Positions 44,927-59,800 of a stretch of DNA of 64,000 nt are shown in pieces. The translations under genes were made by a program, and so were the position numbers. How positions within the stretch are numbered: the stretch's first letter is position 1; the number at the start of each line of letters is the position of its first letter. The notes beneath the pieces are model-generated. The model did no database searches. It was not told the DNA's origin and saw only the letters and a program-made list of their open reading frames with translations. Source of the DNA: Nannocystis pusilla (GTDB taxonomy: Bacteria > Myxococcota_A > Polyangia > Nannocystales > Nannocystaceae); assembly GCF_049337375.1 (NCBI RefSeq), contig NZ_JBMPIV010000015.1. One strand, written 5' to 3'.

Positions 44927-45628
44927 CAGGTGACCCTGGGCGGCGACCGACACCGGGCCGTCGTCCGGGAAGCAGAAGCCGTTCAGCCACAGGCGGGCGC
45001 CGCGGAGGCGCGCGAGGCGGCCGTGGAGCAGCGCGAGGTCGGCGCCGCAGGCGCGGGCGAGCTCGGCGCGGGCGCGCGGCGGGATCGTGTCTGGCCAAAA
45101 GGACAGGCGGTAGGCGGGCTTGCCGTCGACGCGGAGGACGTCGAGGCGCAGCGCGCCGCTCGGATCGGCGGCGACGAGCTGGGCGCGCCGCAGCAGGTCG
45201 GGGAACGGCCGCGCCCGCGAGCCGCGGAAGTCGAGGGCGAAGAACACCGGCGCGGCGGCGGAGCCGGGCAGGGCGCGGGTGAGGCCGCGAGCGAGGGCGC
45301 GGGCCGCCGCCTCGAGCGCGCCGGGGACCTGCGGCAGCGTGAGCAGGCCGGCGACCGCGGCGGGGCTGCCCGCGGCCGCGAGGGCGGCGACGACGGCCCG
45401 CAGGCGGCCCGGGGCGCGCGGCGCCAGGGCCACCAGGCGAGCGACGGCGGGCTCGTCGAACTCGCCGCGGACGAGCAGCTCGTCGAGCTCGCGCAGGGCC
45501 TCGTCGGCGTCGCCGGCGGCGGGCGGGGCGGGGACCAACCAGAGGTGCGGGCCGGCCTGGTCGCGGGCGCGGTCGAGGGCCGCGAGGGTGTCCGATGGGA
45601 CAGGTCCGTCCGAGCGCCGGCCGCTCAC
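44885..45628 (-). CDS. hypothetical protein translationally coupled to the AAA+ ATPase
   Basis: ATGA overlap with the downstream gene. No recognisable motif. Confidence 0.4.
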   Translation of the reverse strand: MSGRRSDGPVPSDTLAALDRARDQAGPHLWLVPAPPAAGDADEALRELDELLVRGEFDEPAVARLVALAPRAPGRLRAVVAALAAAGSPAAVAGLLTLPQVPGALEAAARALARGLTRALPGSAAAPVFFALDFRGSRARPFPDLLRRAQLVAADPSGALRLDVLRVDGKPAYRLSFWPDTIPPRARAELARACGADLALLHGRLARLRGARLWLNGFCFPDDGPVSVAAQGHLLAAWLTWSEGHAL

Positions 45629-45629
45629 G

Positions 45630-46106
45630 TCACCGCTCCCGTATGGCCCTGTCGATCTCGCGCTTCTGCTCGCGCTCCTTGATCGAGGCCCGTTTGTCGT
45701 AGGTCTTCTTGCCGCGGCACAGCGCCAGCTCGAGCTTGATCCGGCCGTTGCGGGCCAGCAGGGCCAGAGGGATCAACGTGAGCCCGGCCTGATCGACCGC
45801 GTCGGTCAGGTGATCGAGCTCCTTGCGGTGCAGCAGCAGCTTGCGCGGGCGCAGCGGCAGGTGGTTGCGGTCGTGCGCCTGCGTGTACTCGCCGATGTGC
45901 GATTGATAGAGGAAGAGCTGGTCGCCCTGGAACTGGCAGTACGACTCGCCCAGGCTGGCGCGGCCGTCGCGGATCGACTTGACCTCGCTGCCCATGAGCG
46001 CGAGGCCGGCCTCGTAGCGCTCGAGGACCTCGTACTCGAAGGTGGCTCGGCGGTTCTGGACGAAGATGTGGCCGTCCTTCGTCGCGGTCTTGTCGGTCTT
46101 CTTCAC
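45630..46106 (-). CDS. smpB: SsrA-binding protein
   Basis: FEYEVLERYEAGLALMGSEVKS... Confidence 0.9.
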   Translation of the reverse strand: MKKTDKTATKDGHIFVQNRRATFEYEVLERYEAGLALMGSEVKSIRDGRASLGESYCQFQGDQLFLYQSHIGEYTQAHDRNHLPLRPRKLLLHRKELDHLTDAVDQAGLTLIPLALLARNGRIKLELALCRGKKTYDKRASIKEREQKREIDRAIRER

Positions 46107-46121
46107 GGCGGGGGTGGAAAG

Positions 46122-46802
46122 CTACAAAGCGGACCGCAGGAGGGCAAGTCCGGCGGCGCGGGCGGCCCCTGCGGCCCGAGCGGCGGCGAGGCAGGCGGTC
46201 AGGGTGGCGCCGGTGGTGGTCACGTCGTCGACCACGAGGACGCGCCGGCCGACGAGCGACCGCCCGGCTCGCACGACGACCGCCCCGGCGAGGTTGTGCC
46301 GGCGCGCCGGCCCGTCGAGCTCGCTCTGCGGCGTCGTGGCGCGCGTGCGCTGCAGGAGCCGCGGCTCGAGGCGGGCGCCGGTCGGGTGCTCGCGCGCGGC
46401 CCAGCGAGCCAGCAGGGCGGCCTGGTTGAAGCCGCGGGCGAGGGCGCGGCGCCAGTGCAAGGGCACCGGCGCGACGAGATCCCAGCCCTCGCGCCACACC
46501 GGCGCGTGGGCGAGGAGCCGGCCCAGCGGCCCGGCGAGCTCGAGCTCGCCGACGAACTTGAGCCGCCGGACGGCCGCGGCGAGCGGGCCGTCATAAAGGA
46601 AGCAGGCCTCCACGTCGCCGACGCGCCGCGCAGCCGGGTCGAGCCGCGCGAGCTCGGGGGCGCAGCGGCTGCACAGGGGCGGCACGCCCCCGGCCGGCGG
46701 GGCCCGGAGCAGGTGACGACAGGCGATGCACACCGGCGGCGCGAGGAAGTCGAGGAGCACACGGAGAGGTCGTGTGAACCGCCGTCGTTGTTGCACGCGC
46801 AA
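46122..46802 (-). CDS. comF: ComF-family protein (N-terminal Cys4 Zn finger + phosphoribosyltransferase domain)
   Basis: CIACRH...CSRC. PRTase motif VLVVDDVTTTGATL. Confidence 0.75.
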   Translation of the reverse strand: MRVQQRRRFTRPLRVLLDFLAPPVCIACRHLLRAPPAGGVPPLCSRCAPELARLDPAARRVGDVEACFLYDGPLAAAVRRLKFVGELELAGPLGRLLAHAPVWREGWDLVAPVPLHWRRALARGFNQAALLARWAAREHPTGARLEPRLLQRTRATTPQSELDGPARRHNLAGAVVVRAGRSLVGRRVLVVDDVTTTGATLTACLAAARAAGAARAAGLALLRSAL

Positions 46803-47039
46803 GAGATCGCGCTGGAGATCGCGTCGAATTCACAGCACAAGAGGCGTGTGAAGATCATTTCGCCGTCCGATGCAAGCAGGCGGTCATGCGCACGATCGCC
46901 GCCAGTGCCGAGAAATTCGCCGGATCTGCGGCGATGCTCGCGATCCACGGCGGAGGAAGACGCACACATCGCCGCTGGGCGTGATCTGGCGTGCAAATCG
47001 CGGCAGTGGGCGGCACGCTAATTCCAAGGAGGCCGCGTC

Positions 47040-47567
47040 ATGCTCGCACACGATCTCGGATCTCTCAGCGTCGGAACGGTCTTGACGACTTCCACCTTCA
47101 CGGTGAAGCCGGCCGATCTGACTGCGCATGTGGAGTCCAGCTTCTTGGGACAGGTAGTGGGTTGCGGAGAGGAGATGCTGTCGACCGGGAGCGTGTCCGG
47201 CGGCGGCGCGCCGGAGCCGTGGGGTCGAGTTTGTCCGCTGCCGGTCGCGTTCGGTCGGGCGCTGTCGGCCCTGGCCCACAGCGAGCCGTTCCGCGACGTC
47301 GCGCTGACGCTGCGCAGCATCAGTCGCGTGCGGCGCTTCGGTGAGGTGCTGGTGGGGGAGCCGCTGACTGCGATCGCGACGGTGCGCTTCCGCAGCGGCA
47401 GAGTACCGAATGCGACGCACGTGACGCTCGCCGTCGAGGTCCACCGCGAGAGCCAGCGCGGCCGCGTCGGTGCGACCGCGCTGAGCTTCGAGGTCGGGCT
47501 CGAGCTGCGATCGCTGGCGAGCGCCGCTGCAGAGGTGCAGATGGCCGGCGGCGCCGCCGCCGCTTGA
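47040..47567 (+). CDS. hypothetical protein (possible hotdog-fold)
   Basis: AAGGAGG RBS before ATG 47040. 175 aa. Confidence 0.45.
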   Translation: MLAHDLGSLSVGTVLTTSTFTVKPADLTAHVESSFLGQVVGCGEEMLSTGSVSGGGAPEPWGRVCPLPVAFGRALSALAHSEPFRDVALTLRSISRVRRFGEVLVGEPLTAIATVRFRSGRVPNATHVTLAVEVHRESQRGRVGATALSFEVGLELRSLASAAAEVQMAGGAAAA

Positions 47568-47840
47568 GGCCTGCTTTCGGGCTCCTTTCGCCGGGCTCGC
47601 CGCGCCGCGTCATGGTTTTCGGACCATGTCTCAAGATGCAGTCCGTCGCACACGCGACCTGCGCAGTGGCCCGCGGTCCGGTAACGCCGCTGGGTGGTCT
47701 TTGAGACAGAGGCCGACGGGGCCTGCGCCAGGCTACGCGGCGCGTTTCCGCGCGAGGGCTGAGATAATCTTCTCGGCCACGATCGGGTGCGCATCAGCTT
47801 GCCAAGGCGGATCCCCTGTGTGACCTTCAGTCTGCGGCGC

Positions 47841-48935
47841 ATGCTCTACGAGGACCGCTACAAGCTGATTTTGGCCGCGTGCCAGGACATTCGCCGGCAT
47901 CGCGAGCAGGTCGCCAAGACGGTGATAGCGAGCCAGCTCCTCGACGCCCTCGACGTCGATGTCCCGAGCGACGCGCTGTTGTCCCACATCGTCGCCGAGT
48001 CGCTGTTGCGACGGATCGACCGCAACCTGCTGTCGGGGCGGAACTTGTACCTGCAAGCCGAGAAGCGGCCGCAGATCGACCTGTTCACGCTGCTGCAGCG
48101 GGCGATCCCGGCGGTGCCGCAGGGCTACGCGCTGGCCAACCAGTACCTCGTGCACGCGATGCGGCAGTCGAGCACGCCGGCGCTGCTCGAGATCGGGATC
48201 GGCAAGGGCCTGCAGATCGTCGCGCTGCTGCGGGCGCTCGCGCGCGACCCCGGCAAGATCGAGCGCCTCCGCGTGATCGCGCTCGAGCCGAACCGCACGG
48301 CCCTGAACGAGGGCGTGGCCGCGATCGACGAGGTCCGCGCCGAGCTGCCGTTCGACATCGAGATCTATCCGCTGGTCAAGCTGATCGAGGTCTGCGAGGA
48401 TGCCGACTACGCGCACTTCGAGGCGCTCGCCGAGGGGAGCTTGTCGATCAACGCGGCCTACACGCTGCACCACACCACGGGGCCCGACAGCGACGCGCGC
48501 ACCCGGCTGCTGCGGCGGCTGCGGGCCCTGCGGCCGCGGGTGTTCACGCTGGTGGAGCCGAGCTCGGACCACGACACCGAGCACCTCACCCGGCGCATGC
48601 ACCACTGTTGGCAGCACTTCGCCACGGTGTTCGATCTGGTCGACCGCAGCGACGCGTCCCCCGACGAGAAGTTCGCCATCAAGGAGGGCTTCTTCGGCCG
48701 CGAGGTCCGCGACATCCTCGGCACCAGCGACGCCTTCCGCACCGAGCGCCACGAGACGCTCGAGTCGTGGCTGCTGCGGCTGAAGAAGTCGGGCTTCGTG
48801 CCGTACCCGGCGATCGACCTCGACGTCGACCTGCCCGAGTACTGCCGCTCCTCGGTCAGCTCCGGGCTCGTGCGCCTGTCGTACCGCGGCGTGCCGATCA
48901 TCGCGGTGTTCGCGTTCGCAGGGGAGGCGGGATGA
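47841..48935 (+). CDS. bacterial GRAS-domain protein (Rossmann-fold methyltransferase-like)
   Basis: The C-terminal FRTERHETLESWLLRLKKSGFVPYP matches the GRAS RVER/SAW region (ERHETL.QWR.R...AGF.P). An alternative GTG start lies at 47787. Confidence 0.6.
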   Translation: MLYEDRYKLILAACQDIRRHREQVAKTVIASQLLDALDVDVPSDALLSHIVAESLLRRIDRNLLSGRNLYLQAEKRPQIDLFTLLQRAIPAVPQGYALANQYLVHAMRQSSTPALLEIGIGKGLQIVALLRALARDPGKIERLRVIALEPNRTALNEGVAAIDEVRAELPFDIEIYPLVKLIEVCEDADYAHFEALAEGSLSINAAYTLHHTTGPDSDARTRLLRRLRALRPRVFTLVEPSSDHDTEHLTRRMHHCWQHFATVFDLVDRSDASPDEKFAIKEGFFGREVRDILGTSDAFRTERHETLESWLLRLKKSGFVPYPAIDLDVDLPEYCRSSVSSGLVRLSYRGVPIIAVFAFAGEAG

Positions 48936-49474
48936 GCGACGAGAGCGAGCCGAGCGAGCCGGTGGTCCACGGGGCGCTCATGGGCGGCTTCGCCCAGGCG
49001 TGCGTCAACCTCAACATCGTCGCCGGTCGACGGGCCACCGCGCTGCTGGCCGACATCGACATGGGGCGGTGGTTCCCGCTGTCGAAGTGGATGGAGATCG
49101 AGCGGATGGTCGGCGAGTCGTACGCCAACGTCGAGCCGATCCGGCTCAAGCTCGGCATCGAGATGATGACGTTGTGGTACCACCACGGCCCCGGCAAGGC
49201 GCTCATCCACCGCGGCGCCGACTTTCTGCACTTCCAGACCGGCAGCCACGGCATCGCCAGCGTCATCCGCGGCCCGCGCGAGGTGGTCGGCTCGTTCGAC
49301 CTCGCCGAGTTCGACTCGGAGCGCGGCCACGCCGTGATCCGCTCGTCCACGCCGTTCGACAAGACGATCGAGCGCGGCGTGCTGATCGGCGGGGTGATGG
49401 CGCCCGGCGACCTCTACTACGTCGACGTGACGAACGACGGCGACCCCAACCGGCTCGTGGTGGAGTTCCACTGA
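48932..49474 (+). CDS. hypothetical protein (180 aa), possible sensory/ligand-binding partner
   Basis: GGGGAGG RBS. ATGA overlap with the GRAS gene. No recognised motif. Confidence 0.5.
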   Translation: MSDESEPSEPVVHGALMGGFAQACVNLNIVAGRRATALLADIDMGRWFPLSKWMEIERMVGESYANVEPIRLKLGIEMMTLWYHHGPGKALIHRGADFLHFQTGSHGIASVIRGPREVVGSFDLAEFDSERGHAVIRSSTPFDKTIERGVLIGGVMAPGDLYYVDVTNDGDPNRLVVEFH

Positions 49475-49475
49475 G

Positions 49476-50402
49476 ATGACGCTCGACGAGATCCTCGAGG
49501 GGCGAGACCCCGACCGCCTGTCCGAGCTGTCGCGCGAGGACATGCGCCGGCTGTTCTGGATGTACAAGGGCCTGCTCAAGCGGGTCGAGCGCGACACCGC
49601 CTACTGGCAGGCGACCAACGACAACCTGCGCACCGCGTACGAGCGGCTCGACGAGCAGGAGCGCGAGCTGGCCCGCGCCTACCAGACCATCCGCCAGGAC
49701 CTCGAGATCGCCCAGCAGGTCCAGCACGCGCTGCTGCCGAAGGACCACCCGGAGATGCTCGCGCGCTTCGAGTTCTCGGTCTACCACAAGCAGATGACCG
49801 AGGTCGGCGGCGACTACTATGACTTCTACCGCCTGCGCGACGGCAGCCACGCGATCGGCGTGTTCGACATCTCCGGCCACGGGGTGTCGGCGGCGCTCAT
49901 CATGGCCTACCTCAAGGCCCAGCTGGTCCAGACGATGGAGCAGGTGTCGCGCCCGCGCGACATCGTCGAGTACCTCAACAACGCGACCGTCGGGTTCCTC
50001 CGCGAGGTCCGCCGCTACGCCACCGTCAACTTCGTCGCGTTCGGCGAGCGCACGTTCCGCTACGTGTGCGGCGGCGGCTACGGGGTGCTGGTCCGCGGCG
50101 GCGAGGTCCACACGTTCAACAAGGGCGACCCGTTCATCGGCCTGCGCCGACGCGCGTACAGCGAGTACGAGCTGCCCTTCGAGACAGGTGACGTGCTGGC
50201 GCTGTACACCGACGGCATGGTCGAGGCGCAGGACAGCGCGGGCGCCGACTACAGCACCCGCCGGCTGCACGAGCTCGTGCGCACCAACGCGGAGCTGCCG
50301 GCCAACCAGATCCTCCAGCGGTGCCTCGACGACTACGGGCAGTTCCGTCGCGTCGACGCCGACGACATCACCCTCATCGTGCTGCGGAGGCGGGCGGCGT
50401 GA
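49476..50402 (+). CDS. PP2C-type (SpoIIE/RsbU-like) serine phosphatase
   Basis: GGDYYDF...FDISGHG signature. Confidence 0.8.
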   Translation: MTLDEILEGRDPDRLSELSREDMRRLFWMYKGLLKRVERDTAYWQATNDNLRTAYERLDEQERELARAYQTIRQDLEIAQQVQHALLPKDHPEMLARFEFSVYHKQMTEVGGDYYDFYRLRDGSHAIGVFDISGHGVSAALIMAYLKAQLVQTMEQVSRPRDIVEYLNNATVGFLREVRRYATVNFVAFGERTFRYVCGGGYGVLVRGGEVHTFNKGDPFIGLRRRAYSEYELPFETGDVLALYTDGMVEAQDSAGADYSTRRLHELVRTNAELPANQILQRCLDDYGQFRRVDADDITLIVLRRRAA

Positions 50403-50914
50403 GCGAGCACGAGTTCGACGACGAACCGATCACGACCAGCGTCGGCCTGACGCTGACGGTCGCGCCGATGGGCGACGCGCGCGGCAACCTGGCGACGACC
50501 GTCGGCGAGTCGCTGCTGGCGATGCTGACGGTCTTCTACCCGCAGGCGCTGTGCAAGAAGGCCAACGTGGTCATCACCGAGCTGGTCCAGAACGTGATCG
50601 ACAACGTCAGCGATCCGGGCAGCCAGATGCGCGTCGACCTGCGCATCGACGGCGACGCGCTGCAGGTCCAGGTCACCAACAAGGCGACCTTCGAGCAGTA
50701 CCAGGACGTGAAGGACCGCGTCGACCGGCTGACGACGGCGACCGACCCGAAGCGCCTGTTCGCCGACACGCTCCGCGCCCGCCGCATGCAGCGGCTGCGC
50801 GGGGGGCTCGGCCTCATCCGCCTGGTGTCCGAGAACCGCTTCCGCTTGTCCGCGACGTACTCGGGCGAGAACTTGACGATGCAGGCGGTGTTTCCTTTGC
50901 GAGGTGCGCAATGA
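50399..50914 (+). CDS. anti-sigma regulatory factor / RsbW-like Ser kinase (GHKL ATPase)
   Basis: ITELVQNVIDN (N-box). GGLGLIRLVS (G2-box). GTGA overlap with the phosphatase gene. Confidence 0.7.
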   Translation: MSEHEFDDEPITTSVGLTLTVAPMGDARGNLATTVGESLLAMLTVFYPQALCKKANVVITELVQNVIDNVSDPGSQMRVDLRIDGDALQVQVTNKATFEQYQDVKDRVDRLTTATDPKRLFADTLRARRMQRLRGGLGLIRLVSENRFRLSATYSGENLTMQAVFPLRGAQ

Positions 50915-51318
50915 ACGTCCTCACCTACGGCGAGATCATGGACGGCGGCGTCAGTGTGTTCCACTGCGTCGCCCGCGAGGACGAGGGGAACTTCTCCCTC
51001 ACGTTCTCGGGCGTGGTCCGGATCGACAACCCTTATCGCTATCTGTCGGCGCTGCTGCAGGACCTGCGCGAGATCTTGCCGAAGCGGGAGATCCAGCGCA
51101 GCGTGCTCGACTTCACCGAGCTCGAGTTCTGCAACTCCAACGGCTTCTACGTGATCATGGACATCGTCGAGCTGGTCTACCTGCTGCTGCCCGGGCCGGT
51201 GCTGGTCCGCCGCCTGCAGGAGGACGACTGGCAGCAGGAGACGCTGCCGATCCTGCTCAACCTCGACGAGGAAACCATCGCCGCCCGGACGACCTTCGAG
51301 GACGTGCGAGAGTTCTGA
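50911..51318 (+). CDS. STAS-domain anti-sigma-factor antagonist (RsbV-like)
   Basis: LDFTELEFCNSNGFYVIMDIVE matches the STAS phosphorylation loop (DLSGV.FIDSSG). ATGA overlap. Confidence 0.65.
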   Translation: MNVLTYGEIMDGGVSVFHCVAREDEGNFSLTFSGVVRIDNPYRYLSALLQDLREILPKREIQRSVLDFTELEFCNSNGFYVIMDIVELVYLLLPGPVLVRRLQEDDWQQETLPILLNLDEETIAARTTFEDVREF

Positions 51319-51319
51319 C

Positions 51320-52408
51320 ATGGTGGCGATCCTCGAGCTGGTGGAGTCGATCGCGCTGCGCGTCGATGCCGACGGCAAGGTGACCCCGGCGTCGCCGGCG
51401 GCGGCCCGCTGGCTGGCCGCCCGCCCCGGCGCGCCCAGCCTCGGCGCGCTGTTCGGCGCCGCGTCGCCGGCGTTCCTGCGCAGCCTGGCCGAGAGCAGCG
51501 GCAAGGCGGTGCCCGAGAATCCCTGGCCCGAAGGACCTGTCGCATGGGACCTGTCCTTGGAGCCCTCCGACGGGGTGCTGGCGGTGGGCGTCGCCATCCG
51601 CTCGCCGCGGGCGCTGGCGTCGCAGCTGGCGACCGCGACCCTGCTCGACAAGAGCCTGGCGCTGGCGGTGCTGCCGCGCGAGTCGGCGGCGCCGCTCGGC
51701 GAGCGGCTCCAGCCCAAGGCCTACCGCGAGTCGACGGTGATGTTCATCGACGCGGTCCAGTTCTCGCGCCTGGCCGCCCGCGTCGACCCGGTCACCTGCC
51801 TCAAGCAGCTCGACTTCTTCTTCTCGGCCTTCGACCAGATCACGTCGGCGTTCGGGGTCGAGAAGCTGCGCACCGCCGGCGACACGTACGTGGCGGTCTC
51901 GGGCATCCCCCACCGCCGCCTGTCGCACGCCGTCGACGCGACGTTCGCCGCGCTGCGCTGCGCCCAGGTGGTGGCGTCGGGGCTGACGCCGATCGTCGAC
52001 GAGTGGGACTGGAGCTTCCGCATCGGCCTCCACTCGGGCCCCTGCATCTCCGGCGTGCTCGGCTCGAAGAAGCCGGTCTACGACCTGTGGGGCGACACCG
52101 TCAGCGTCGCCAGCCACGTCGAGCGCGTCGGCCAGCCCGACTCGGTGTGCGTGTCCGGGGCGGTCCGTCAGCTCATCGAGCCGTTCTTCTCGCTCGAGTT
52201 CCTGCAGACGACGGTGACCCGCAGCGTCGGCGAGATCGAGGTGTTCGCGGTCCGCGGGCTGCTCCCCGAGCTGCAGGCCGACGACCAGGCGGTGGTCGCC
52301 AACGCCGAGTTCACGGCCCGCTACGAGGCGCGCTTCGGCTCGCCGTGCCCGACCGCCGCCCAGGAGGCCCTCGGGGTCGAGCTCGGCCAGGGCCTCGACG
52401 AGTTCTGA
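51320..52408 (+). CDS. class III adenylate/guanylate cyclase with N-terminal unknown sensor region
   Basis: VMFIDAVQFSRL, KLRTAGDTYVAVSG, GLHSGPCISGVLGSKKPVYDLWGDTVSVAS. Confidence 0.8.
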   Translation: MVAILELVESIALRVDADGKVTPASPAAARWLAARPGAPSLGALFGAASPAFLRSLAESSGKAVPENPWPEGPVAWDLSLEPSDGVLAVGVAIRSPRALASQLATATLLDKSLALAVLPRESAAPLGERLQPKAYRESTVMFIDAVQFSRLAARVDPVTCLKQLDFFFSAFDQITSAFGVEKLRTAGDTYVAVSGIPHRRLSHAVDATFAALRCAQVVASGLTPIVDEWDWSFRIGLHSGPCISGVLGSKKPVYDLWGDTVSVASHVERVGQPDSVCVSGAVRQLIEPFFSLEFLQTTVTRSVGEIEVFAVRGLLPELQADDQAVVANAEFTARYEARFGSPCPTAAQEALGVELGQGLDEF

Positions 52409-52417
52409 GCTGTTCGA

Positions 52418-52452
52418 GAGGGCATGTTCATCCGGACATGTCCTCTCGGTCC
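52418..52452. repeat. GGACATGTCC-family palindromic repeat array
   Basis: gggcatgttcatccggacatgtcctctcgg. Confidence 0.7.
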
Positions 52453-53030
52453 AGGTGGTAGTCCTTGAACAGGTAGGCGTAGAAGCCGACGACTTCGCGC
52501 AGCAGCGACCACGGCTCGCGCAGCTCGAGATCGAGGTCGGCGTGCGCGCCGGTGGCCTCGACGCCGAAGCGGCGCAGCGCCAGCTTGGTGCGGGTGACGT
52601 GGTAGTACTGGCTGACGGCGATGGCGGAGCGTTCGCCGCGGGCGCGCAGGTCGGCGGCGACGAAGCGGGCGGTGGCGTGGGTGTTGACGCCGCCGCGGTC
52701 GACGGCGATCCGCTCGACCGGGACGCCGCGGGCGACCAGGTAGTCGCGCATGACGTCGGCCTCGTGCGGGCTGCCGGGATCCTGGCCGCCGCTGACGATG
52801 AGGCGCGGGGCGAGGCCGGCGGCGTACAGGGCAGCGGCGCGGTCGAGCCGCAGCTGGAGGCGGCGCGAGGGCTCACCGGCGGGGCTGACGTGATTGCCGA
52901 GGACGACCGCGACGTCGGCGGGGCGGTCCTCGTCGGTGCAGCCGTCGACGGCGATGACGAGCAGGTGGACGAGGCCCCAGACGCACAGGAGGGCGAGCAG
53001 GCGGAGGATGTACTTTCGCACCTGGCGCAT
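52428..53030 (-). CDS. DUF218/YdcF (SanA/ElyC) family protein
   Basis: VAVVLGNHVSPAGEPS...IVSGG pattern with an N-terminal TM. Confidence 0.65.
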   Translation of the reverse strand: MRQVRKYILRLLALLCVWGLVHLLVIAVDGCTDEDRPADVAVVLGNHVSPAGEPSRRLQLRLDRAAALYAAGLAPRLIVSGGQDPGSPHEADVMRDYLVARGVPVERIAVDRGGVNTHATARFVAADLRARGERSAIAVSQYYHVTRTKLALRRFGVEATGAHADLDLELREPWSLLREVVGFYAYLFKDYHLDREDMSG

Positions 53031-53041
53031 GGGACCTGTCC

Positions 53042-54067
53042 TCAAGGACCTGTGATTTCGCCGGCCGGCGGGCGCACGGGCAGGCAGTCGAGCCGGGCGG
53101 TCTCGGGGTCGTAGCGGAAGGTTTCGTGGCGGGCCAGGAGGCGGCGCGCGTAGGCGTGCAGGCGCTCGGGTCGCATCGATCGCCACGCGACGCCGGCGGC
53201 GCCGGTGGTGTCGAACAGGCGCACGCGGCCGAGGCGATCGCGGGCGGGGTCGACGATCATCATGTGATGGTACATGCGCTCGCCGCCGCGGGCGCGGGCC
53301 CGGTGCGAGACGCTGCAGAGGTGGAGCGCGTCGGGGACGAGGGCGGCGATCAGGGCGTCGGGGTCGAGCTCGGCGAGGCGCAGGTCGAGCAGCTCGAGGC
53401 CGCGCGGGAGGGCGTCGGCGGGCAGGCGGGCCGCTATCTGCAGGAGGGCGGCGCGGCCGGCGTGGGCGCCGTCCTGGCACGACTCGAAGCCGCCGGGCGG
53501 GTCGCAGGGCACGAGGTCGGCGAGCTCGAGCCGCGGCAACCACAGCAGGCGGACGCCCTCGAGGAAGCCGCCCAGGCAGCCGAGGTCGTATGTCCCCGGG
53601 GACAGCTGCACGGGGCGGCCGGCGTCGGTGCGGCAGAAGCCGGCGGGTTCGTCGAGGCGGATGTGGCCGAGGCGCTCCCAGGCGTCGATCTCGGCCCAGC
53701 GATCGGGTTCGAAGGCGAGCTCGAGGCCGCGGAAGATCGCGGCAGGTTCGCGCGCGCGCAGGCCCGCGGCGAGCACCTGCGGGACGCGGGGGTAGTGCGC
53801 GAGCGAGGGCCAGCGCGCCAGGAGGTCGAGGTCGCGGGCGCCGACCGGCTCGCGGTGGACGGTCGGGCGAGGCGCCGGCGAGGTCCCGCGCGTGAGGTCG
53901 AGGTCGGGGCGGCCGTGCGGATCGAGGTGACCGATCGGGCGCGGGGCGGCGGGCGAGGTCGGGGCGGTCGCGTCCTCTTCGGGCGCAGCAGCGGGCGCCG
54001 GCTCCCCGCAGGCGAGCGCGGCCACCAGGCCAGCCGTGAGCACCCGAGGGTCGCGCACGGGAGGCAT
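53042..54067 (-). CDS. lipoprotein, hypothetical
   Basis: LAC lipobox. Confidence 0.45.
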   Translation of the reverse strand: MPPVRDPRVLTAGLVAALACGEPAPAAAPEEDATAPTSPAAPRPIGHLDPHGRPDLDLTRGTSPAPRPTVHREPVGARDLDLLARWPSLAHYPRVPQVLAAGLRAREPAAIFRGLELAFEPDRWAEIDAWERLGHIRLDEPAGFCRTDAGRPVQLSPGTYDLGCLGGFLEGVRLLWLPRLELADLVPCDPPGGFESCQDGAHAGRAALLQIAARLPADALPRGLELLDLRLAELDPDALIAALVPDALHLCSVSHRARARGGERMYHHMMIVDPARDRLGRVRLFDTTGAAGVAWRSMRPERLHAYARRLLARHETFRYDPETARLDCLPVRPPAGEITGP

Positions 54068-54249: not shown

Positions 54250-54480
54250 ACGAGCGCCGCGCCGGCGCTCGCTGGGCGGGGGCCATGAGCTGTCGCCCTC
54301 ACTGCCCTCGAGGACATGTTTAAGAGGACATGCTCGGTGGAGCATGCCCTCTTAGAAATGTCGGAAACCGCGCCGGCGCTCGCTGGGCGGGGGCTATGAG
54401 CTGTCGCTCTCACTGCCCTCGAGGACATGTTTAAGAGGACATGCTCGATGGTGCATGTCCTTTAAAAAATGTTTGAACGG
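54250..54480. repeat. ~110-bp tandem direct duplication (2 copies, ~93% identical), each carrying GGACATG-type palindrome units
   Basis: ccgcgccggcgctcgctgggcgggggc[c/t]atgagctgtcgc[c/t]ctcactgccctcgaggacatgtttaagaggacatgctcg[g/a]tgg[a/t]gcatg[c/t]cc... Confidence 0.85.
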
Positions 54481-54501
54481 ACAGGGCCGGAGGGCCAGGT
54501 G

Positions 54502-56586
54502 TCAATGCGAGGCGGCGATCACGGTGAGCGTGCGGCGCATGACCAGAGTGGTCCAGGTGTCGGTCAGCGGCAGGGCAGGGATCGTGACGCTGCCGTCGGG
54601 GCCAGCGACCACCTCGCCGTGGTCCTGGCCGAACGACCAGGCGACGCGCTCGCCGGGGCGGCAGCGGAAGGCCTGGGTGCGGCGCGGGGTCACGTCGACG
54701 AACGCGGGCAGCTCGGCCATCACCCGGTCGCCCTCGCTCGGGTAGCCGGGCGCGGGCGGGTCGGCGCCGTCGCCGGCGTGGACGCGCAGGGCGAATTGCA
54801 GGCGATCGACGGTGTCGACCACCGAGGCGCCGTCCCAGCGGAGGAACCGGCCGAGCGCGCCGGCGATGGCGCCGTCCCAGCCGGTGTCGCCGGCGATGGC
54901 GACCTCGCCGGCGAAGCCCGCGTTGGCGCTCCAGTCCTGCTTGCCGTTGCCGACGCCGACGCCGGGGTCGTCGTCGAGCGAGGAGTACGAGAAGGCGGGG
55001 AACGCCCGGTCGCGGCGCAGCGTGGCCTCGTCGCCGCTGATCGGCGCCCACGAGCCGGTCCACCAGCTGTCCCCGAGGACAGGATCGGCGACGCCGTGGC
55101 CGCCCTCGTCCCAGATGGCGAAGTGGCCGACGCCGCGGCTCTGCAGCGCCTGATAAAAGCTCTCGCCGGTGCGCGGGCTCGGCAGGACGGTGGCCCCGAA
55201 GTGGATGGTCGGGTCGTCCTTGCCGTGCTTGAGGAACAGGAACTGGTCGCGGGCCTCGCTCGACTCGGCGAGGGCGCGCGTCAGGTCCATGTGATCCCAC
55301 GCCGACAGGCCGCCGCCGCCGTCGAGGTCGAGCTCCGGCGCGCCCCACCAGCCGGACAGCTGGGTGATCCGCGACGGCCGGTGGTTGCGCGCGATCGCCT
55401 GACCGAGGCGCGCGTCGATGTACGCGAAGTGACGCCCGCGCAGGAGGCCGAGCAGCATCGCCCCGGCGCCGCCCATCGAGCTGCCGTAGACGTAGACGCG
55501 CTGCGGGTCGGCCTCGGGGTGGTGGCGCAGGACGTACTCGACGAGGTGGAGCACGCGGCGCATGGTGTAGTCGGGCGCGGCGCCGCCGGCCGCGGGCTCG
55601 ACGTCGGGCAGCGAATCCGCGTAGCCCCACCAGTAGGTGTTGTCCGGGTCATGCGGCGAGATCCGGATCTCGTTGGCCGAGCCGGTGCCGCCGGGGTTGG
55701 CGGTGGCGAAGCCGTGCAGGCCGATCCGCACCGGCACGCCCTCGGACGGGGCCTCGAGCGGGACCATGACCTTGGCGACGAACTCGCGGCCGGCGTAGCC
55801 CGGGCTGTCGAGGTACTCATCTGTCTTTTGGGACAGGGTGTAACGGACATATCCGCTGGCGTCGAGGAACTCGGTGTCGACGACCTCGGGCCACGGCGGC
55901 TGGATGGTGTCGCGGACGACGACGTCGAAGGTGGCCTCGACGCGCGACTCGTGGTCGTGGGCGAGCACGGTGACGGTCCAGCGATCGCCGCCCTGGGTGA
56001 AGTCGGGGGTGAAGCGGAAGGTGCGGGTCGGCTCGTCCCAGGTGGCGCCCGGCGGCAGGCCGAGCACGTGGACGCGCAGGGCCGCGGGCTCGGCGACGTC
56101 GACGACGTCGACGACGAGGCCGACCTCGGTGTCCTCGTCGACCCCGACCTCGGCGGGGACGAGGATCCGCGGGGCCGAGCGCTCGACGGCGAGGGTCAGC
56201 GGGCGCGACTCCTCGTCGTCGCGGCGGACCAGCACCTCGTAGTCGCCGCGCTTGCGCGGGCCGCTGTGGGCGTGCAGCTCGCCGCCCGAGACGAAGGTGG
56301 TCGGCAGCTCCTGGCCGGCGACGACGACGACGCTGGAGCGCGTGAAGCCGGCGCCGGTGACGTGGAGGTCGAAGGCGACGCCGCCGGGCGCCGGGTCGGG
56401 CGAGAGCGCGTCGAGCTCGAGCGGCGCGAGCTGGGGGCCGCCCAGCGGGCCCTCGCTGACGGGCGGGCGCGTCGGCGGCGTCTGCTCGTCAGGGATGGCG
56501 CCCGAGAAGCCGCTGTAACAGCCGGCGAGGGCGAGCCACGTGACCGTGAGGCACGCGCGCGAGACCAGGCCAGAGCAGGACAACAT
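54502..56586 (-). CDS. secreted lipoprotein esterase (alpha/beta hydrolase, PHB-depolymerase-like) with N-terminal Ig-like domains
   Basis: Lipobox LALAGC. VYVYGSSMGGAGAM (GxSxG motif). Confidence 0.65.
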   Translation of the reverse strand: MLSCSGLVSRACLTVTWLALAGCYSGFSGAIPDEQTPPTRPPVSEGPLGGPQLAPLELDALSPDPAPGGVAFDLHVTGAGFTRSSVVVVAGQELPTTFVSGGELHAHSGPRKRGDYEVLVRRDDEESRPLTLAVERSAPRILVPAEVGVDEDTEVGLVVDVVDVAEPAALRVHVLGLPPGATWDEPTRTFRFTPDFTQGGDRWTVTVLAHDHESRVEATFDVVVRDTIQPPWPEVVDTEFLDASGYVRYTLSQKTDEYLDSPGYAGREFVAKVMVPLEAPSEGVPVRIGLHGFATANPGGTGSANEIRISPHDPDNTYWWGYADSLPDVEPAAGGAAPDYTMRRVLHLVEYVLRHHPEADPQRVYVYGSSMGGAGAMLLGLLRGRHFAYIDARLGQAIARNHRPSRITQLSGWWGAPELDLDGGGGLSAWDHMDLTRALAESSEARDQFLFLKHGKDDPTIHFGATVLPSPRTGESFYQALQSRGVGHFAIWDEGGHGVADPVLGDSWWTGSWAPISGDEATLRRDRAFPAFSYSSLDDDPGVGVGNGKQDWSANAGFAGEVAIAGDTGWDGAIAGALGRFLRWDGASVVDTVDRLQFALRVHAGDGADPPAPGYPSEGDRVMAELPAFVDVTPRRTQAFRCRPGERVAWSFGQDHGEVVAGPDGSVTIPALPLTDTWTTLVMRRTLTVIAASH

Positions 56587-56820
56587 GCGCTGATCTTTCC
56601 CACGACGTGCGTCGATGCGCCAGCGCCGACCGACGAAATTTCTGTGACGTGGTCGCAAGACCGGCGAGCGGACGGCCCGCGATCCGGCGCACAAGGTAGG
56701 TCCGCGGCGCGAACTTCCTGGGGCGAGGCGTCGCCGCGGTCACGTCTCCGGCGCCCTGCTCGTTCCCCTGGGCTTTTAGCCGGATGTCGGTTGCAACATG
56801 GCGGAAAGGACATGCGAAGG

Positions 56821-59800
56821 TCAGGCCGGGTGACGCTCGAGCCAGGCGTCGACCTCGGCCTGGTAGTGCTTCGCCCCTGCCTTTCGGAACAGGGTCTGCG
56901 CCGAGACAGCGAGGGAGCGTGCCTGTGCGCGATCTCCGCGAGAGCTCCAGAGGACCTGTGCGAGCTGGAATTCGGCCTGGGCGCGCTGGATGGGGGCGTT
57001 GCGCGGGTCGAGCAAGGAAATGCTGCGCTCGAGATCGCGGCGGGCGTCGTCGAGGCGACCTTGCGACTGCCGCACCCTGGCGCGAGGGGTCAGGACCTCG
57101 GACATCCACAGCGAGTCGCCGCCGTAGTTGCGCTCGATCGCCGCGACGGCGGCGTCGGCCTCGCGCTCGGCCGCCGACAGGTCGCCGAGGCCCGCGAGCG
57201 CGACCCCCCGGATCGCCCGACTGACGGCGGTATAGAGGTTGTCCTCGCCGAGCACCGAGGCGGACAGGGGCAGGGCCTTGTCGGTGTGGTCGCGGGCGGC
57301 GGCGTAGTTGTCGCGGGCGAGCTCGATCTGCGCCAGGGCGAGGTGGGCCAGGACGATGCCCTGGGGGTCGGGGCTCTGCGCGGCGCTCCAGATGGCGAGC
57401 GCGCGGGTGGCGTGTTGCTCGGCCAGCCCGAGCTCGCCGCGCACCTGCTGGACCGAGGCGAGGCGCTCGAGCATGGCGGCGACGCGGGTGCTCAGCGGGC
57501 CGAAGTTGTGCTCCCAGATCGCCCGCGCCTCCTCGTAGGCGTCGAGGGCCGCGCCGAAGTCGCCGCGCTGGGCGGCGATGTCGGCCAGCGCCGACAGCGG
57601 GTAGGCGAGCCGCTCGTGGCGCGGGGGCAGGGCGGCGCGCAGGATCGTCAGGGCGGCGCGCTGGTGCTGCTCGGCGGTGTCGAAGTCGCCGCGCAGGGTG
57701 GCGACGTTGCCGAGGTCGGCCAGCGAGAAGGCGTTGCTCGGGTGACCCTCGCCGTAAATGTCGCGGCGCAGGGCCAGGAGGTCCTCGAAGATGATCTGCG
57801 CCGGCTCGAGCTGACCGAGGCTGAGGTGGACGTTGGCGAGGTTCTGGCGCGTGGTGACGGCGGCGATCGAGCGCTCGGGCAGGTCGGCCAGCGAGCGGCG
57901 GTAGTGGTCGATGGCGGTGGCGTACTCGCGGCGGGCCTCGGCGATCTGGCCGCGACGGAACTCGAGGTCGCCGCCGAGGCGAGGCGGGCGACCGAGGCGC
58001 TCATGGAGGGCCTCGGCGTGGCGCAGCCACGGCTGGGCGTCGTCGGGGTGGCCGAGCGTCTGCGCCAGGCGGCCGGCGAAGCCGCTGGCTGTCTCGAAGG
58101 CCAGGCGGTCGTGGCCGGCGGCGAGCGCCTCCCAGTAGGCGTCGCCGTAGACGCGGACGCCGTCGTCGTACTTGCTGGCGACGAACAGCTGCTCGGCGAG
58201 CTGCGCCAGCACCTCGGCGCGCAGCGGGCGGTAGCCGAGGTCGCGCGAGCGCTGCTCGGCGGCCTCGAGCAGGTTGAGGCCGGCGCCGGGGTGGCCGGCC
58301 GCTGCCTCGGCGCTGGCGCGCGAGAGCTGGCCGCGCAGCTCCTGGACGGCCTCGGCGAGGGCGGGCGCGGGCGGGGCGACGTCGGCGCGGAGGGCGTCGA
58401 GGTCGGCGCAGCGGGCCGGGGACGGCAAGGCCTCGACGGCGTCGTGGGCGTGCGCGACGGCGTCGGCGTCGGCCCCGGCGAGCACGCCGAGCAGGGCGTC
58501 GAGCTCGTGGCGGCGATCCTCGAGGCAGTGCATGCGCCTGTCCAAAAGGTCATGTGATTGCTCGCCGCGGATGTTGGCCGCGGCGCACGCGTCGGTGTGG
58601 CCGGCGATCCACGCCTCGGCCCAGGCGTCGACGCGCGCGCCGGCGCGAGCGGCCGCGTCGGGGGCGTAGGGCAGGCCGGTGGCCGCGAAGGCGGCGTCGA
58701 GGGCGGCGCGGCGCTCGGGGTTCCACGTCGGCGCGAGCGCCTCGGCGGCCCCGGTGCACAGCGCGGGCGCTTCGCCAGCGAGGGCGAAGGCGACGGCGCC
58801 GGCGACGAGCAGCGCGCCGCCGCCGGCGAGGGCCCAACGCCTGCGGTCGCGCCGCAGCGGCCGCTCGAGCGCGTCGAGCAGCGCCTGCATCGACGGCCAC
58901 CTGTCCCCGGGTTCAGCCGAGAGGCCGCGCAGGATGGCGCGGTGGATCGCCGGCGGGACCTTGGCGGGGCGCCGCGGCGGATCGACGCGACCGCGGGCCT
59001 TGGCCGCCTCGAGCGCGAACAGGTTGTCGCCGCTGAACGGACGGTTGCCGTACAGGCCCTCGTAGAGGGCGACGCAGAAGCTGAACTGATCGGCGCGCTC
59101 GTCGATCGCGGCGCCGCCCCGCTGCTCCGGGGCCATGTAGGCCGGCGTGCCGACGAGGGTGCCCACGCGGGTGAGCGGGCCGGACACGAGCGAGGAGGAC
59201 AGCGGATCGATCGGGGCGTGGGGGTCGGGCGAGCCGGCGGCGCTCGTCGGCTCGACCTCGCCGGCGGGGCGCGCCAGGCCGAAGTCGAACACGCAGATCC
59301 GACCTGTCTCTCCGACCAGGACGTTGCCGGGCTTGAAGTCGCGGTGGATGATGCCGACGGCGTGCGCGGCGACCAGGCCGCGGCCGGCGGCGAGGAACAC
59401 GTCGAGGACCTCGCGCACGCCGCGGACGCGGTCGTCGAGCCACTGGGCGAGGGTGATGCCGGGGACGTACTCCATCACCAGGAACACGCCGGCGGCCTGC
59501 GGCATCCTGTCCTTCGGGACAGGCTCCGTCCGGTGCGGACCGATCCGCATGGTGGTGAGGGCGTCGGCGTCGTAGCTGCCGACGTCGTGGACCGCGACGA
59601 CGTTGCCGTGCGACAGCCGGGCCAGCGCCTGGGCCTCGCGCAGCAGGCGAGCGTGGGCGGCCTGGGCGGGGCCGTCGCCGGGGGCCACGCGCAGCAGCTT
59701 GATCGCGACCTTGCGATCGAGGCTGGGATCGTAGGCGAGGTAGACGACACCCATGCCGCCGGCGCCGAGGCGACGCATGAGGACGTAACGGGTGAGCTGG

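Follow-up and report, generated by a model that had tools for sequence, protein, structure and literature searches.

The stretch of Nannocystis pusilla DNA analyzed here, 64,000 nucleotides (nt) long and referred to below as the window, contains an operon of six co-directional genes, g1 to g6, on the plus strand. The operon encodes a GRAS-domain protein predicted to be a methyltransferase dependent on S-adenosylmethionine (SAM) (g1, 47841-48935, 364 amino acids (aa)), an H-NOX-fold protein of an un-named domain family (g2, 48932-49474, 180 aa), a PP2C phosphatase of the SpoIIE/RsbU/SiaA type with a helical N-terminal region of ~95 aa (g3, 49476-50402, 308 aa), a SiaB/RsbW/SpoIIAB-like GHKL protein with a GTG start (g4, 50399-50914, 171 aa), a STAS-like antagonist with a conserved Ser76 (g5, 50911-51318, 135 aa), and a class III nucleotide cyclase, in which an N-terminal region of ~95 residues and a helical linker precede the catalytic domain (g6, 51320-52408, 362 aa). 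The cassette is best read as a self-contained cytoplasmic signaling unit of Myxococcota, and it recurs in dozens of uncultured relatives.

The GC content of the region is ~70%, and raw lists of open reading frames (ORFs) are crowded with spurious frames. Coding frames were picked from a plot of third-position GC content (GC3) together with translation, which gave one clear frame per segment and backed all six genes. The junctions from g1 to g6 are, in order, an ATGA overlap, a 1-nt gap, a GTGA overlap, an ATGA overlap, and a 1-nt gap. An initial annotation of the window had described every junction as an overlap (ATGA, GTGA, ATGA, ATGA) or 1 nt apart; the six genes are indeed nearly gap-free, but there are three overlaps and two 1-nt gaps, not four overlaps. 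The same annotation placed the unit at 47568-52408. Its end is exact, but 47568 is the base that follows the stop codon of an upstream ORF (47040-47567), and g1 starts at about 47841. The ORF of g1 opens at 47787, and the NCBI product for g1 is a 371-aa protein that starts from the GTG codon at 47820.

A scan of genome contigs with the single GRAS protein identified Nannocystis genomes only, and more distant neighborhoods were obtained from protein look-ups and a metagenome scan. Seven GRAS homologs located on long contigs (41-62% identity) belong to loci encoding GRAS, ~180-aa, PP2C, ~170-aa, and 135-aa proteins in the same order, with the cyclase added in five of the seven. The flanking genes differ in every inspected locus, and the tight junctions recur. 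The metagenome scan with a g5 profile provided 80 more loci, which are a biased sample of g5 diversity, as the search patterns came from the two most conserved motifs of g5. Every ORF in these loci was searched with hidden Markov models of the six proteins. The cyclase directly follows g5, with a gap of -4 to 86 nt, in 62 of the 77 loci with enough downstream sequence, and g1 to g4 are present, completing a five-gene core, in 35 of the 40 with enough upstream sequence. In every locus, g1 is coupled to g2: the two genes overlap or lie no more than 85 nt apart, in most cases less than 45 nt. Dereplication with a g5 identity threshold of 90% left 49 lineages, of which 36 have the cyclase and 11 lack it, with 2 that could not be assessed; the full six-gene set was observed in 23 lineages and the five-gene set in 7. 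Since the same order and tight junctions recur at 41-62% protein identity amid differing flanks, and in the 80 metagenome loci, the arrangement is more than a fortuitous series of ORFs. The initial annotation had reckoned with a gene order that is not conserved in related genomes; the order is conserved, and this objection falls away.

Some loci of the collection have peculiarities. In L011 (8675-9597), the PP2C gene is split into two called ORFs of 142 and 165 aa, which indicates a frameshift or an assembly error. In Nannocystis exedens DSM 71, the cassette (98% identity) occurs near the ends of two contigs of a single assembly, utg0 and utg4 (L003 and L004), which may reflect a true duplication or an assembly overlap.

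Proteins encoded by the cassette

On profile and motif evidence, g1 is a genuine member of the GRAS family whose SAM-binding motif is intact. It matches the Pfam family PF03514 with an E-value of 1.4e-35 (123.4 bits, cut-off 27), with residues 43-323 aligned to profile positions 37-328 of 374, and PF03514 is present in all 79 g1 homologs. The C-terminal SAW-region motif of g1 is TERHETLESWLLRLKKSGF, in which ERHE, W, and G are invariant in eight orthologs. The initial annotation had recognized the protein by the signature ERHETLxxW...SGF, which is present in g1 as ERHETLESW...KKSGF, and had considered that g1 might be an ordinary methyltransferase, an objection that the Pfam score of 123 bits against a cut-off of 27 removes. 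The nearest solved relatives of g1 are rice SCL7, DELLA RGA, and SCARECROW, with E-values of 1e-15 to 1e-11 against solved plant GRAS structures. Like the plant proteins (DELLA, SCARECROW, SCL), g1 is a full-length GRAS domain with a C-terminal ERHE..W..GF motif. It differs from them in that it has no N-terminal regulatory region, is encoded within a signaling operon, and retains the GxGxG SAM motif, which is gone from the aligned plant protein. Motif I, E-I-G-x-G-x-G (LLEIGIGKG), and the acidic residue after strand 2 (VIALEP/IAIDP) are conserved in eight g1 orthologs, whereas rice SCL7 reads DFGIVQG at the position of the canonical SAM motif. In five other Nannocystis species, the homologs of g1 are 95-98% identical. 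Bacterial GRAS proteins were reportedly predicted by Zhang, Iyer, and Aravind in 2012 to be SAM-dependent small-molecule methylases. Parts of the literature citing that work relay the prediction that they are methylases (PMC4279901). The intact motif I and the acidic residue of g1 fit the prediction of an active SAM-dependent methylase, and g1 is a predicted SAM-dependent methyltransferase. No experimental work on bacterial GRAS proteins was found in the searched literature.

The g2 protein has the H-NOX fold. Its AF2 model, built on 29 relatives, has a predicted local distance difference test score of 90 and a predicted template-modeling score of 0.88. The protein has no match in Pfam, NCBIfam, or PADLOC, and specifically none to Pfam HNOB (PF07700). 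A word-based search with g2 returned only ~90 close relatives; a profile search of 1.8 billion representatives identified at least 211 members of the g2-type domain, counted as representatives at 50% identity. The domain is near full length in 109 representatives, 88 of which are longer proteins, and it starts within the first 22 residues in 87 of these 88. The downstream domains of the 85 longer proteins scanned against Pfam include HATPase_c (40), HisKA (32), GGDEF (25), receiver (20), Ser/Thr kinase (Pkinase, 4), and class III cyclase (Guanylate_cyc, 2) domains, and also PAS; the g2-type domain itself is covered by no Pfam family. This architecture, as read from the domain order, is the signature of an input domain. 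The initial annotation had listed g2 as unknown, and the lack of Pfam and NCBIfam matches agrees with this, but the protein has a recognizable fold and its domain recurs as an N-terminal input domain. Since g2 has an H-NOX fold and the same domain stands at the N-termini of histidine kinases, GGDEF proteins, Ser/Thr kinases, and cyclases, it is the best sensor candidate of the cassette.

In contrast to H-NOX (HNOB) proteins and animal soluble guanylate cyclase, the g2 family has no HNOB match and no conserved histidine. No conserved His, Cys, or Met column was found over 110 family members, in which position 100 is occupied by R, H, Y, K, or E. The conserved residues are Gly, Trp47, Tyr48, Pro49, Trp82, Tyr83, Tyr108, Arg113, Asp128, and Asp160. 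The propionate-binding motif of H-NOX proteins, Y-x-S-x-R, is replaced by I-x-S-x-T (I-R-S-S-T) in g2 according to a placement by eye, in which the site is approximate. The identity of g2 as a heme-binding H-NOX was rejected as a family trait on the missing His, Cys, or Met column. The ligand of g2 is probably not heme, and sensing of heme or nitric oxide is unlikely as a family trait.

Some members of the g2 family have other partners. P0166 and P0167 join the g2-type domain to a C-terminal, Cys-rich tail of ~110 aa (LPICASCKKIRDD.GYW...SHG.CP.C), which has the appearance of a zinc-ribbon-like output module. In P0231, the domain is directly fused to a class III cyclase, in an arrangement similar to that of soluble guanylate cyclase; since that cyclase has only 27% identity to g6, this fusion arose independently.

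The three proteins encoded by g3, g4, and g5 constitute a putative partner-switching module. By its motif content, g3 is a SiaA-like PP2C phosphatase. It matches Pfam SpoIIE with an E-value of 8.7e-28, its best solved relative is the PP2C domain of Pseudomonas aeruginosa SiaA (6k4e, E=7.6e-17), and the metal-binding motifs GGDYYD, DISGHG, YTDG, and DDIT form a complete, invariant set. The g4 protein is of the GHKL serine-kinase type with an anti-sigma-factor fold and has SiaB as the best structural match; its N box (E61..N65) and G2 motif (G135-G-L-G) are conserved. The g5 protein is the most conserved of the set, always 135 aa long, with a mean column identity of 71%. It has no Pfam match. 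A g5 profile searched against the Protein Data Bank retrieved SpoIIAA only, with an E-value of ~0.1, in an alignment that pairs FCNSNGF with FMDSSGL. Ser76 of g5 is invariant in eight independently found orthologs and presumably occupies the position of phospho-Ser58 of Bacillus subtilis SpoIIAA, as counted along the SpoIIAA sequence. Matches to the NCBIfam models slr1658 (NF047703) and slr1659 (NF047705) reach 34.7 bits for g4 and 25.2 bits for g5, against cut-offs of 100. In hhalign comparisons, g4 aligns to slr1658 with 82% probability and g5 to a bona fide slr1659 protein with 90.7%, and the slr1659 protein aligned to g5 itself matches STAS and anti-sigma-antagonist models. The assignments in the initial annotation of a PP2C, an RsbW-like fold, a STAS-like protein, and a class III cyclase are thus all borne out. 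So is its remark on the missing sigma factor: no sigma factor gene was found in the operon or in the seven inspected loci.

The catalytic domain of g6 belongs to class III and is not a GGDEF domain, as residues 131-295 match Pfam Guanylate_cyc (PF00211) with an E-value of 3.4e-36. Catalytic positions were set by alignment to the C1 and C2 domains of adenylate cyclase AC5. The metal-binding aspartates D144 and D188 are present, align with those of AC5 C1, and are invariant in 55 orthologs. Among the substrate-binding residues, the Asp is kept (D255) and the Lys is replaced by R184; the transition-state Asn and Arg are replaced by S262 and H266. The signatures of the 55 cassette cyclases are DDKDNR (36), DDTDSH (12), DDKDSQ (3), DDRDSH (2), DDKDNC (1), and DDKDNQ (1). 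DDRDSH is found in the window and in L017, and DDRDSH or DDTDSH marks the Nannocystis-proximal clade. Since 36 of the 55 orthologs carry DDKDNR, the ancestral enzyme was a Lys/Asp adenylate cyclase, and the Lys/Asp pair predicts that the intact cassette cyclases make cyclic AMP (cAMP). Catalysis by a class III cyclase homodimer requires the Lys, Asn, and Arg that have been lost here. The g6 protein of Nannocystis is probably a poor enzyme or none, judged from these substitutions, and may serve as a pseudo-cyclase scaffold or as a C1-like half that needs a partner from elsewhere. With its metal site kept and a His in place of the Arg, g6 is similar to the C1 half of mammalian cyclases, so that it could conceivably form a heterodimer with an unlinked partner. 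A paralog search of the window found no second copies of g1 to g6, including no second cyclase that could complement g6. The N-terminal region of g6 is poorly conserved, and a Pfam scan of the cyclase N-terminal regions of six orthologs at E<=10 gave no match, including none to PAS or HNOBA, so that a PAS-like N-cap suspected by eye is not claimed. The initial annotation had taken the cyclase as evidence of a cyclic nucleoside monophosphate (cNMP) output. The class III domain is real, but the cyclase is absent from 11 of the 47 assessable lineages, and since the catalytic positions have changed from Lys to Arg, Asn to Ser, and Arg to His, a cNMP output is doubtful in Nannocystis.

Proposed mechanism of the switch and alternatives

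The last four genes of the operon share with SiaABCD of P. aeruginosa the order phosphatase-kinase-antagonist-nucleotide cyclase and the lack of a sigma factor (PMC7278518). The SiaA PP2C domain and SiaB are the closest structural counterparts of g3 and g4, and g6 takes the position held by the diguanylate cyclase SiaD. In the Pseudomonas system, SiaB phosphorylates SiaC, SiaA reverses the reaction, and unphosphorylated SiaC binds and activates SiaD (PMC7278518, PMC7647112). The cassette differs in that its output is a class III (cAMP-type) cyclase instead of a GGDEF enzyme, g3 is soluble with a short helical N-terminus whereas SiaA has a membrane/HAMP part, g5 is similar to classical STAS and slr1659 proteins, and two extra genes, for the GRAS and H-NOX-like proteins, precede the module. 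The score of g3 against the NCBIfam SiaA equivalog is 73.8 bits, with a cut-off of 700, g4 does not match SiaB_fam_kinase, and g5 has no Pfam match; therefore, the resemblance to SiaABCD is structural and organizational only. The modules RsbU/RsbV/RsbW and SpoIIE/SpoIIAA/SpoIIAB have in common with the cassette a PP2C phosphatase, a GHKL protein with the anti-sigma-type fold, and a STAS protein in which a serine lines up with the canonical phospho-serine. However, the cassette has no sigma factor gene, g4 lacks DxGxG, and the similarity is seen by profile or structure only.

The slr1658/slr1659 systems, known from Synechocystis Slr1658, contain remote homologs of g4 and g5, with which they share an N-for-D substitution in the G1 box and the NSxG and WQ..LP motifs. 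They also include a SAM-dependent methyltransferase, and they adjoin the GRAS and g2 genes in one locus (L014) and replace them in others (L037 type). They differ from the cassette in that the methyltransferase is a UbiE-like class I enzyme fused to STAS, not a GRAS protein, and in that they lack an H-NOX-like protein and a cyclase. In L014 (3816-6898, minus strand), a complete canonical slr1658/slr1659 module is positioned head-to-head with the GRAS cassette, ~100 bp apart. The genes of this module code for a protein of 290 aa, a protein of 431 aa that combines an slr1659/STAS-like N-terminus with a UbiE-like methyltransferase domain, an slr1658 protein that scores 161 bits against the cut-off of 100, and an slr1659 protein that scores 125 bits. 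In four other loci (L037, L038, L039, and L048), GRAS and g2 are missing, and three other genes stand in their place upstream of g3-g4-g5. As seen in L037 (27-7408), the first encodes a 640-aa protein in which a UbiE-like methyltransferase domain comes after an slr1659-like (STAS) segment, the second a dCache-HAMP-PP2C protein, and the third a fusion of slr1658 and slr1659; this variant has no cyclase. An iron-starvation-recovery phenotype is cited for slr1658/slr1659 systems in PMC7555055. Partner switches of this branch are accompanied by a SAM-dependent methyltransferase of varying family and a sensor of varying type. Since the methyltransferase, where fused, is fused to the STAS partner domain, GRAS is not accepted as an upstream sensor, and the domain arrangement argues for the methyltransferase as a partner or output of the switch and not as its input.

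We hypothesize that the four 3' genes of the operon work like SiaABCD, with g2 as the input and the GRAS protein within the switch, a reading by analogy for which we see roughly even prospects. In this mechanism, g4 would phosphorylate g5 on Ser76, and g3 would remove the phosphate. Unphosphorylated g5 would leave g4 and bind an effector. Where the cyclase is present, the effector would be its N-terminal region and linker, and binding of g5 would switch cAMP synthesis. The g2 protein, a heme-ligand-less H-NOX-fold sensor, would provide the input by controlling g3 through its N-terminal helical region, as RsbT controls RsbU. The g1 protein would bind SAM, be active as a methyltransferase, and form a physical component of the switch, but not its primary sensor. 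It may serve as a second output that g4 or g5 holds, or it may modify either g2 or its ligand. The output in Nannocystis would then be GRAS-dependent methylation or protein-protein signaling, with little cAMP from g6 alone.

Several observations weigh against this mechanism, whose weakest steps are the kinase activity of a g4 without the G1 box and the role of GRAS. The canonical G1 box, DxGxG, is absent from g4 and replaced by V-x-N-x-A-T in all homologs, and since this is an ATP-binding box, the kinase activity of g4 is not assured. Both g4 and g5 stay below the NCBIfam cut-offs for slr1658 and slr1659 and match no SiaB or SiaC family model, and the similarity of g5 to STAS proteins is weak at the sequence level (E ~0.1 against SpoIIAA). 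A sigma factor encoded elsewhere could be the target of g4. The g2 protein of the window has a His100 on the predicted helix 95-103, which we tentatively assign to the heme-histidine helix of H-NOX proteins; the residue is present in about a quarter of the family, and heme binding by this particular g2 is possible. It is also possible that g2 could be an adaptor instead of a ligand sensor, and the Ser and His at the Asn and Arg positions of g6 might keep some cyclase activity. The sequences show the fold and family of each protein, the conserved gene order, the fusions, and the residue states; the wiring as a whole is read from gene order, fusions, and analogy.

An alternative that we consider possible but doubtful is that the methyltransferase is the output, with GRAS sequestered by g4 or activated by g5 and methylating a metabolite or protein elsewhere, and the cyclase an optional second effector that is decaying in Nannocystis. 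GRAS belongs to the constant five-gene core and the cyclase does not, the canonical slr1658/slr1659 modules are cyclase-free but always include a STAS-fused methyltransferase, and catalytic residues were lost across a whole clade of cyclases that are otherwise conserved. However, the GRAS protein carries no STAS domain of its own, it is coupled most tightly to g2, which is more in keeping with a place on the input side, and there is no evidence for a GRAS substrate.

The initial annotation had proposed a linear pathway, in which GRAS senses or makes a methylated small molecule, the signal passes through the partner switch to the cyclase, and cAMP or cyclic GMP is the sole output. The genes and their conserved order stand, and this pathway would account for GRAS with an intact SAM motif as the first gene, translationally coupled to the rest, and for a cyclase that follows g5 in 62 of 77 assessable loci and is catalytically complete in 36 of 55 orthologs. 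Nevertheless, nothing puts GRAS upstream of the switch, and g2, the better sensor candidate, sits between GRAS and the switch. The methyltransferase of the sister systems is fused to STAS and looks like a switch partner. In addition, the cyclase is missing from 11 of 47 assessable lineages while GRAS, g2, g3, g4, and g5 stay together, and the cyclase of the window is without the Lys, Asn, and Arg. We regard the linear pathway as unlikely.

The cassette could also be a split soluble guanylate cyclase, in which g2 binds and regulates the N-terminal region and linker of g6, as H-NOX does in the animal enzyme, and the partner switch is a parallel modulator. This is improbable, as g2 stays in the cassettes of 7 lineages without the cyclase, the cyclase fused to a g2-type domain in P0231 shares only 27% identity with g6, the N-terminal region of g6 is poorly conserved without a PAS or HNOBA match, and heme ligands are not conserved in the g2 family. 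An anti-phage defense system or a natural-product cluster is suggested by the variable flanks, according to which the cassette moves as a unit, and by a weak match of the g6 cyclase domain to the Pycsar cyclase PycC (E=5.9e-7), but is highly improbable, as the PycC score is far below that of Guanylate_cyc and reflects domain-level homology only, no other protein matches PADLOC, and every component comes from a signal-transduction family, with no effector, toxin, or biosynthetic core enzyme among them.

Leader, terminator, and flanking genes

The ORF upstream of the operon (47040-47567, plus strand) encodes 175 aa and is indicated as coding by GC3. It has no match in Pfam, NCBIfam, or PADLOC. 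The ORF is kept in all Nannocystis loci, and a 58%-identical counterpart is located upstream of GRAS in L012 only, whereas more distant cassettes lack it. The ORF is outside of the coupled unit and may be loosely associated with the operon. It is followed by a region of ~270 nt with low GC3 (47568-47840, plus strand), which is a leader and promoter region, since it has no in-frame start codon before 47787. Across five Nannocystis species the leader hardly varies, less than the upstream ORF does at its end, and it is not conserved in L012. A palindrome, CATGGT-N6-ACCATG, lies at about 47609-47630 in the leader, and a GATAAT box at about 47770. An Rfam scan of the leader gave sub-threshold chance matches only, and thus no SAM or other riboswitch. 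Scans for sigma-70 consensus promoters and T-tract terminators found none, as expected for a myxobacterium with a GC content of 70%.

Downstream of g6, a 13-bp hairpin (52415-52448) was spotted by reading the sequence and then folded. Its free energy is -30.8 kcal/mol (z -5.2), and none of 200 shuffles folds as well. The consensus terminator scan missed it because it lacks a T tract. The hairpin is likely a bidirectional terminator between the operon and a convergent gene (52428-53543, minus strand), which encodes a 371-aa protein with a C-terminal DUF218 domain and ends with its stop codon within the hairpin loop. Two long ORFs on the plus strand of the window have no Pfam match at E<=0.01, one of 1362 aa (54469-58557) and one of 633 aa (45120-47021).

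Biological meaning of the cassette

The initial annotation had presented its pathway as apparently undescribed. Partner switches that act on a nucleotide cyclase instead of a sigma factor are already known from SiaABCD, HsbR/HsbA/HsbD, and BgrU/BgrW/BgrV/BgrR (PMC7278518, PMC7647112), and the principle of a partner switch on a cyclase is not new. Literature searches returned nothing relevant on GRAS with partner switching, DUF6272, a partner switch with adenylate cyclase, or H-NOX with STAS or PP2C. Within the searched literature, the new elements are an output through a class III cyclase, the family of H-NOX-fold sensors, a methyltransferase, GRAS or other, that is always present, and the decay of the cyclase in one clade; the 2012 paper on bacterial GRAS proteins may already show the neighborhood.

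The cassette provides the first testable signaling context, with defined partners, for bacterial GRAS proteins. The g2 family is an unannotated sensor domain that provides input to histidine kinases, diguanylate cyclases, Ser/Thr kinases, and adenylate cyclases. Sigma-less switching of the SiaABC type would reach from cyclic di-GMP to class III (cAMP) cyclases, and methyltransferases would be tied to the slr1658/slr1659 branch of switches, for which the NCBI annotation says no more than "regulators". The clade that lost the catalytic residues of the cyclase and kept the protein is a natural experiment on cyclase decay. We speculate, with considerable reserve, that the cassette is a methylation-coupled partner switch, in which the methyltransferase, GRAS here and the STAS-fused UbiE-like protein in the sister systems, would be an integral, regulated element. 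It would methylate the sensor or its ligand for adaptation, like CheR in chemotaxis, or be the true output, and the input would be a new class of heme-independent H-NOX-fold sensors. If this is true, the pairing of a receptor with a GRAS protein predates plants, and the cassette would be a bacterial antecedent of the gibberellin receptor-GRAS logic.

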